Shown here in pieces: positions 3,767-4,108 of a DNA stretch of 5,794 bases. Below the pieces are notes generated by a model. It saw nothing but the letters and a program-made list of their open reading frames with translations, searched no databases and was not told the DNA's origin. The DNA comes from a virus (taxonomy: Duplodnaviria > Heunggongvirae > Uroviricota > Caudoviricetes). Made by a program: the position numbers and the translations under genes. The DNA is taken from IMG/VR virus record IMGVR_UViG_2703719368_000014; one strand, 5' to 3'. Within the stretch, counting starts at the first letter, position 1, and every line of letters starts with the position of its first letter.

Positions 3767-4108
3767 TCATCCGAAGAAGCAGCAATACGGGTCAGCACGC
3801 ACAAGCTCAAGCGCATCAGTCAGCGAAAGTTCAGTACTGTACTGATGCCATTTCATATCCTTCCGCATCCAATAGATTTTCCATCTATCCAGAGAACGTA
3901 TGTACTTGATTCTTGCTGATGGCAGGATGTTTGTTTCACCTGGATTGCCCTGCCACACGGGGCGCTGTTCGCCGATATCTATCGTTTGGTCATTGATGCT
4001 ATAAACAATATCCAGTTCATTGCGGATATGTTCAGGCGGCCTTATGCTTTCAATGAATTGGTGAACTTCTTTTTTGACCGCTTGATATTCAAGGTCAGTG
4101 AACGCCAT
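3767..4108 (-). CDS. Hypothetical protein, 113 aa, immediately downstream of cI in the same operon
   Basis: Strong SD (GAGGAGG, about 4-nt spacer) before ATG 4108..4106, which lies 60 nt after the cI stop. Same strand as cI. No recognisable motifs. Confidence 0.7.
   Translation of the reverse strand: MAFTDLEYQAVKKEVHQFIESIRPPEHIRNELDIVYSINDQTIDIGEQRPVWQGNPGETNILPSARIKYIRSLDRWKIYWMRKDMKWHQYSTELSLTDALELVRADPYCCFFG

Follow-up and report, generated by a model that had tools for sequence, protein, structure and literature searches.

What does the gene immediately behind the cI repressor of a Shiga-toxin (Stx) prophage contribute to the lysogen? The question is raised by a 113-codon open reading frame (ORF) in a 5,794-nucleotide (nt) stretch of Caudoviricetes DNA (IMG/VR record IMGVR_UViG_2703719368_000014; hereafter the window), which represents the immunity region of a Stx phage of the 933W type, with 99% identity to 933W (AF125520) over 99% of the window length. 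The ORF occupies positions 4108..3767 on the minus strand, with an ATG at 4108–4106 and a TGA stop codon at 3769–3767, and codes for a protein of 13.5 kDa with an isoelectric point of 5.6. By annotation it corresponds to L0084 (ST933Wp24) of 933W and to vb_24B_13c of Phi24B. We refer to it by its protein family as the DUF3024 gene. Our best reading, in which we have moderate confidence, is that it is an autonomous, lysogen-expressed accessory gene of the cI–N hotspot that would act by binding a partner and is plausibly anti-phage. We are considerably more certain of its autonomy and of its expression in lysogens; a role in defence is a tentative prediction.

First, we could confirm that the ORF is a real, translated gene and not a chance reading frame. 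The initial annotation, made from the sequence alone, had found no recognisable motif in the protein, a statement that does not hold: it is a full-length member of a family, albeit an uncharacterised one. The match to Pfam DUF3024 (PF11225; E 2.2e-31, 108.8 bits against a gathering cut-off of 24.9) spans residues 4–113 of 113 and model positions 2–112 of 112. PHROG 3467 (phrog_3467, E 3e-66) and the PADLOC candidate PDC-S43 (E 2.2e-42; residues 1–113 against positions 1–115 of 115 in the model) recognise the same protein, a search of NCBIfam with it returned no match, and RefSeq names the E. coli protein "DUF3024 domain-containing protein". Compared with PF11225, PHROG 3467 and PDC-S43, the window protein is a member of the same length with the same conserved residues and no difference. 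Homologues in Enterobacterales measure 113–115 amino acids (aa) and are 59–98% identical; homologues with 34–47% identity occur in Betaproteobacteria, Desulfobacterota, Verrucomicrobiota, Bacteroidota, Spirochaetota and other phyla. The homologue set comprises 597 cluster representatives at E<1e-3, and 227 of 5426 complete E. coli genomes (∼4%) contain the gene. The full-length Pfam match, the homologues across phyla, the ratio of nonsynonymous to synonymous substitution rates (dN/dS) and the detection of the near-identical Phi24B protein in lysogens, both described below, together place the ORF beyond chance. The strong ribosome binding site that had been noted is also there: as read from the sequence, a Shine–Dalgarno (SD) motif, GAGGAGG (4119..4113, minus strand), precedes the ATG by 4 nt. 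A block that includes this SD (AGGAGGATAGATG) is kept in the SE1 copy of the gene and has decayed to AAAGAGG in a pseudogene from a Stx2 II-type phage.

In the window the DUF3024 gene is followed on the minus strand by L0083 (3700..3239, 153 aa), which is named res in Phi24B and labelled "RuvC-like" by PHROG, and by stk (3245..2199), which codes for a eukaryotic-like protein kinase (Pkinase, E 2e-46; PD-T4-6 and mad6-like matches in PADLOC). L0083 itself gave no significant match in Pfam, NCBIfam and PADLOC searches. The 113-aa gene had been proposed as a possible fourth member of this exclusion cassette. We examined co-occurrence in three datasets, including IMG/VR viral contigs and complete E. 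coli genomes, and found that DUF3024 and L0083-Stk each occur alone, about equally often. Since L0083 is followed by Stk in 54/54 assessable IMG/VR loci, these two genes form the core pair. The pairing holds down to ∼50% identity (loci L167–L216), and the stop and start codons of the two genes overlap. L0083 looks like the true, obligate partner of the kinase and not like part of the DUF3024 module. DUF3024 is located 5′ of L0083 in 35 of 55 L0083-Stk loci in IMG/VR and is missing from the other 20. From the opposite direction, 70 DUF3024 loci in IMG/VR provide enough downstream sequence, and L0083-Stk is present in 29 and absent from 41 of them. When complete E. coli genomes were queried with the span from L0084 to L0081, the last gene of the block, they fell into three match classes, one of which contains the whole block. 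A second class matches only query positions 349–2077 (97% identity), with L0083-Stk-L0081 placed right after a different repressor and no DUF3024, and a third matches only positions 1–384, with DUF3024 at 98–99% identity followed by unrelated genes. Both uncoupled forms are thus seen at 97–99% identity. Co-occurrence of DUF3024 with the kinase is therefore not obligate, and membership in the cassette in this strict sense can be dismissed.

The boundaries of the DUF3024 module are marked by an 18-nt direct repeat, GAAGARACGTTTGGRTGA, which occurs in two exact copies in the window that bracket the gene (0.00 expected, 200 shuffles). The upstream copy (GAAGAAACGTTTGGGTGA, 4135..4118, minus strand) overlaps the first two bases of the SD, and the downstream copy (GAAGAGACGTTTGGATGA, 3764..3747, minus strand) begins 3 nt past the stop codon. 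In 9/9 E. coli-type loci checked the upstream copy was present. Both copies flank the gene in four loci (L093, L097, L101 and L122; cargo D5 or D14), and L092, L117 and L139 (cargo D3/D12) contain the upstream copy only. A related junction, TAGACATTTGGGTGATGA, follows right after the cI stop codon in an E. coli prophage that carries L0083-Stk and no DUF3024. Recombination between such junctions would gain or lose precisely the DUF3024 gene, and the 18-nt repeat looks like a boundary for module exchange. These data show that DUF3024 is a discrete one-gene module that is repeat-bounded in the window and in several related loci.

The contexts of the gene in Enterobacterales show that this module recombines independently of the repressor allele upstream and of the cargo downstream. 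A single DUF3024 allele (98% identity or more) is found with 4 repressor clusters and at least 5 cargo clusters, in 13 different pairings, and repressors 5′ of DUF3024 are as little as 21–23% identical to 933W cI while DUF3024 itself stays at 87–99%. The gene occupies two types of site. The first is directly 3′ of a prophage repressor gene in the same orientation; at least 12 clusters of repressors with a helix-turn-helix (HTH) and an S24 domain are represented, as well as an HTH-only repressor in a Rac-like Kluyvera prophage, and in one case a small ORF lies in between. The second type of site is at prophage ends, beside DinI genes and tail-fibre genes. At three of three such ends, in Rahnella, Erwinia and Enterobacter (L087, L088 and L089), DUF3024 is located just 3′ of one or two DinI-family genes, and at the Erwinia prophage end (L088) the whole block of L0083, kinase and small ORF follows DUF3024. 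The cargo after DUF3024 includes the kinase cassette, ParA-like ATPases, an NYN-domain protein, a Peptidase_M78 pair, P63C proteins and several uncharacterised proteins, showing that L0083-Stk-L0081 is one of several alternative cargos beside DUF3024. ParA-like ATPases are a second recurrent cargo besides the kinase. These AAA_31 proteins of ∼350 aa recur directly 3′ of diverged DUF3024 genes (L082, 4481–5551, which is SE1 gp23; L161–L163 and L165) whose products are 87%, 61% and 56% identical to the window protein; the two ATPase groups, SE1 gp23 and those of L161–165, share 27% identity. No cargo at all is found in Morganella phage IME1369_01, where DUF3024 is the sole gene between the repressor and N, or in Rahnella. 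A study of BstA (PMC8585504) describes the interval between cI and n, in which rexAB and bstA also reside, as a recognised hotspot of mosaic diversity, and the region is likewise known as a hotspot for defence genes.

Is the gene expressed in the lysogen? It had been placed first behind the repressor in the pRM operon, with expression during lysogeny, and this assignment is borne out by a terminator scan, record annotations and published work. The cI gene (4876..4169, minus strand; 235 aa, HTH_3 and Peptidase_S24) is the first gene of the operon, and its stop codon is separated from the start of the DUF3024 gene by 60 nt on the same strand, so the two are direct neighbours as claimed. The position of pRM (pM) in the window, 4884..4911 on the minus strand, is an annotation transferred from records only (933W record AF125520, offset 1938 nt); the promoter is also annotated in HM208303. 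Downstream of stk lies the final gene, L0081 (2196..2032, minus strand; 54 aa), and then an intrinsic terminator, tM/tRM (2033..2012, minus strand), with an 8-bp stem containing 6 GC pairs and a T run. A scan of the window for terminator-like sites on the minus strand 3′ of cI found none besides this hairpin. In the GenBank records of 933W and Phi24B, pRM 5′ of cI and tM/tRM at the equivalent hairpin bracket the same five genes, in agreement with a single-operon layout of cI-DUF3024-L0083-stk-L0081 with one terminator after L0081. The DUF3024 gene belongs to the pRM operon inasmuch as it lies on the cI strand, no terminator intervenes, and lysogen expression has been published for the Phi24B copy.

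Riley et al. 2012 (PMC3342100) found a Phi24B protein, P3, identified as "p24 of 933W" with a mass of 13,472 Da, on gels of lysogens only; the computed mass of the window protein is 13,508 Da. The quantitative PCR profile of P3 in that study was lysogen-restricted and cI-like, with a transcript reported at about five orders of magnitude over cI, and no promoter was found. Our search for promoter-like sites 5′ of the DUF3024 gene gave a single match inside cI (4290..4262), which is at chance level. Veses-Garcia 2015 (PMC4651098) lists vb_24B_13c and res as two genes earlier shown to be expressed in lysogens, and reports that induction left vb_24B_13c, res, stk and cI unaltered. According to Smith 2012 (PMC3430580), stk is under pRM control and is expressed in stable lysogeny only, and the transcriptome of Phi24B delta-exo-xis shows joint changes of cI, DUF3024, the RuvC-like gene and stk. 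The intergenic region between L0084 and L0083 (3700–3766, minus strand) contains a short hairpin, GGTCGC...GCGGCC, which appears as a perfect GGCTGC...GCAGCC in L091 and could be a processing or stability element.

Next we consider whether the gene is maintained for its product. Pairwise comparison of nine enterobacterial copies gave dN/dS values of 0.06–0.20, and the DUF3024 gene is under purifying selection with dN/dS of about 0.1. The Stx2 II-type copy (L083, 4001–4302), which is located beside a different cI, is a pseudogene with two 1-nt deletions causing frameshifts and with no stk after it, and ∼40 Stx-phage records give a two-piece match like this copy. Such decay, together with the repeats that flank the gene, would be expected if DUF3024 were a functionless, hitchhiking remnant that merely supplies homology for recombination. 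We regard this explanation as highly improbable, given the dN/dS values, the intact ORFs from E. coli to Bacteroidota and Verrucomicrobiota with an invariant tryptophan (see below), the strong SD and the protein detected in lysogens.

How, then, may the protein work? An AlphaFold2 model computed from 40 homologues (mean predicted local distance difference test score 90.8, predicted template modelling score 0.80) consists of a helix (residues 5–22), five antiparallel strands (33–39, 42–50, 59–70, 75–81 and 87–93) and a second helix (96–105). As modelled, the protein is a small soluble alpha/beta sandwich, and neither the protein nor the model contains a membrane segment. We rejected a role as a membrane superinfection-exclusion protein, since the protein lacks a hydrophobic segment and is modelled as soluble. 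Across 147 family members W87 is present in all sequences (147/147, 100%), and further conserved positions are R23-P24-P25, R29, D33, E47, R49-P50, K/R66, W76, Y79-W80, R82, K86, Y90, D106 and a C-terminal C-F-[FW]-G. The window protein has R-P-P, R29, D33, R49-P50, W76, Y79-W80, R82, W87, Y90, D106 and C-F-[FW]-G. The conserved positions are mostly Arg/Lys and Trp/Tyr, and no catalytic signature is evident among them in the 147 sequences.

Foldseek matched the model to nothing in PDB or BFVD at E<0.01, and no PDB sequence scored below E 0.45 when the complete set was searched with a profile. The structural look-alikes, none of them confident, are an uncharacterised Bacillus protein, Mediator Med17, actin-capping protein, frataxin/CyaY, the toxin-immunity proteins Rv3902c and TriTu, PsiB, AcrIIA11 and the chaperone ExsC. 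The window protein shares its topology, a five-stranded antiparallel sheet with one helix at the N-terminus and another at the C-terminus, with frataxin-like and YkuJ-like alpha-beta-alpha sandwiches, Rv3902c IFT, TriTu, ExsC and AcrIIA11, and these structural neighbours mostly act by binding other proteins. Remote homology and structure prediction, which the initial annotation had put forward as the way to a function, delivered the DUF3024 family match and a confident model, but no confident structural relative. From the model and the conserved residues we infer that DUF3024 is probably a small binding module rather than an enzyme.

The similarity to PsiB and the DinI genes at prophage ends bring to mind a different target for such a binding module. 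In analogy to 434 Hex, PsiB and DinI, DUF3024 could tune the lysis–lysogeny switch by way of the repressor or of RecA-mediated repressor cleavage, and thereby set induction and Stx release. We consider this unlikely. Specific contact with the repressor is hard to envisage because one DUF3024 allele serves repressors that are only ∼21% identical, and most family members are found in non-phage contexts in many phyla. The resemblance to PsiB is weak (5% identity) and ranks below that of proteins with unrelated function, and adjacency to DinI genes may reflect nothing but a shared moron hotspot. No sequence homology to 434 Hex, PsiB and DinI is seen, the DUF3024 family is widespread outside prophages, and the structural score is in the range of unrelated sandwiches such as frataxin, capping protein and Med17.

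Outside Enterobacterales we found no conserved neighbour of DUF3024 in 75 loci from many phyla, analysed with the DUF3024 frame forced. A 150-aa conserved partner that had emerged from neighbour clustering in 80 genome loci proved to be an artefact, an antisense reading frame that overlies DUF3024 in GC-rich genomes. A toxin–antitoxin (TA) reading was rejected for want of a conserved partner. The directly adjacent genes are a mixed group and include TA components, Vsr, a Schlafen-like helicase, Fic and proteins matching several PADLOC defence or candidate models; in other phyla about a dozen immediate neighbours match defence or TA models. In two independent proteins an XRE-type HTH is fused to DUF3024, which suggests that the DUF3024 domain can serve as a sensor or partner part of a transcription regulator. 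These 254-aa proteins from uncultured bacteria (P0053; L014, 5551–6312; L008, 1229–1993) contain the HTH at the N-terminus and DUF3024 at the C-terminus.

At both types of prophage site DUF3024 keeps its place 5′ of cargo that varies, which raises the possibility that it is a head gene, which would encode either a common sensor or regulator for swapped effectors or an RNA-binding factor that controls downstream expression. The breadth of the cargo, from the kinase cassette and ParA-like ATPases to an NYN-domain protein and a Peptidase_M78 pair, is in line with this idea, as are the basic and aromatic residues among the conserved positions and the transcript reported at orders of magnitude over cI. 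Nevertheless, we judge it quite improbable. There is no cargo in the Morganella phage and in Rahnella and no conserved neighbour outside Enterobacterales, and a homology anchor for recombination in the mosaic hotspot would explain the constant position equally well. The broader proposition that DUF3024 is either a constant sensor or regulator head with swapped effectors or a factor linked to the repressor or RecA by which the threshold for Stx prophage induction is set likewise appears distinctly doubtful to us.

We return to the reading of DUF3024 as a lysogen-expressed accessory ("moron") gene of the cI–N mosaic hotspot. According to this proposal, the protein would work alone by binding a protein or nucleic-acid ligand and not as an enzyme, and would most likely protect the lysogen from phages that superinfect it, a task that rexAB, bstA and stk perform at this location. 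The idea of defence derives from the status as a PADLOC candidate, from the company of neighbouring genes and from this precedent of position. The precedent concerns location and expression: lambda rexAB, Salmonella BTP1 bstA and 933W stk lie beside the repressor or are co-transcribed with it and are made in the lysogen. The comparison with rexA drawn in the initial annotation is apt for the position after cI only and does not extend to homology, as Pfam, PHROG, NCBIfam and PADLOC searches returned only DUF3024 and PDC-S43 and nothing related to RexA or RexB. In contrast to RexA/RexB, BstA and the kinases, with which it shares no similarity of sequence or fold, the DUF3024 protein has only 113 aa and no effector or membrane domain. 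PDC-S43 was assigned from BREX, DISARM and type I restriction–modification loci; the source paper describes the PDCs as 145 candidates without tests that were found by guilt-by-embedding, and its supplements contain neither "PDC-S43" nor "DUF3024" as text.

Several points weigh against this interpretation. No phenotype has been reported in the literature for any DUF3024 protein, and PDC-S43 is a predicted candidate only. How a 113-aa protein that lacks an effector domain could stop a phage alone is not obvious. The Stx2 II pseudogene and the ∼40 similar records imply that the gene is not needed for the phage life cycle, although such dispensability is as expected of an accessory gene. Finally, four lineages that have diverged from one another (933W-type, Erwinia, Providencia and Proteus) all have DUF3024 5′ of L0083-Stk, and Erwinia retains the four-gene order (DUF3024, 153 aa, kinase, 47 aa) at a prophage-end site and not after cI, so that some functional link between DUF3024 and the kinase is possible.

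This last point leads to the alternative that DUF3024 belongs to the L0083-Stk abortive-infection cassette as an accessory subunit, serving as sensor, adaptor or brake. The gene lies directly 5′ of L0083-Stk in the same operon, and the order is kept while DUF3024 falls from 99% identity in the 933W-type to 59% in Erwinia aphidicola (L0083 86%, Stk 77%), 40% in Providencia (L0083 70%, Stk 57%) and 37% in Proteus (L0083 69%, Stk 57%). DUF3024 diverges faster than L0083 and Stk in each lineage, as a phage sensor might, and in Erwinia aphidicola the block is kept away from cI. Against these observations stand the IMG/VR L0083-Stk loci without DUF3024, including E. coli copies at 97–99% identity, and the majority of DUF3024 loci that lack the kinase. 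Furthermore, phage PSTNGR2lys carries the Providencia DUF3024 allele (99.8% nt identity) but no Stk, suggesting that the kinase cassette landed beside a resident DUF3024 gene. Cloned stk alone reportedly excludes HK97. On balance, a role as cassette subunit seems improbable. Independent lysogenic conversion, the second possibility that had been named for this ORF, fits the data better than the cassette does, the defence label being a prediction.

Away from the DUF3024 locus, two differences between the window and 933W were noted. It is without a 400-nt segment (L001, 2036–2435) that carries ea10/ssb in 933W, with the junction at window positions 534/535; Ea10 gave no match to the window by tblastn. 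Positions 1609–1683, around the start of N and nutL, could not be aligned to 933W, and the longest N ORF codes for 149 aa in the window compared to 127 aa annotated in 933W.

Part of this picture was already known: the ORF was annotated in 933W in 1999, the DUF3024 label exists in Phi24B and RefSeq, lysogen expression was described in 2012, and PDC-S43 is listed in PADLOC. The present analysis adds that the gene is separable from the kinase cassette, that it is bounded by repeats here and in several related loci, and that it stays constant between variable repressors and cargo. We recommend that annotations list it under DUF3024 / PDC-S43, as a module of its own and not as part of the Stk kinase system. 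Few other prophage genes have demonstrated production in the lysogen, and 933W-type Stx phages carry this one. If it acted as a constant head gene or on the induction threshold, this would provide a function for a gene found in ∼4% of complete E. coli genomes and in the main Stx phages of enterohaemorrhagic E. coli. If it is anti-phage or has an influence on induction, this would have consequences for how stable Stx prophages are and how they spread, and either role, defence or induction, would assign a function to a family that extends across many bacterial phyla.
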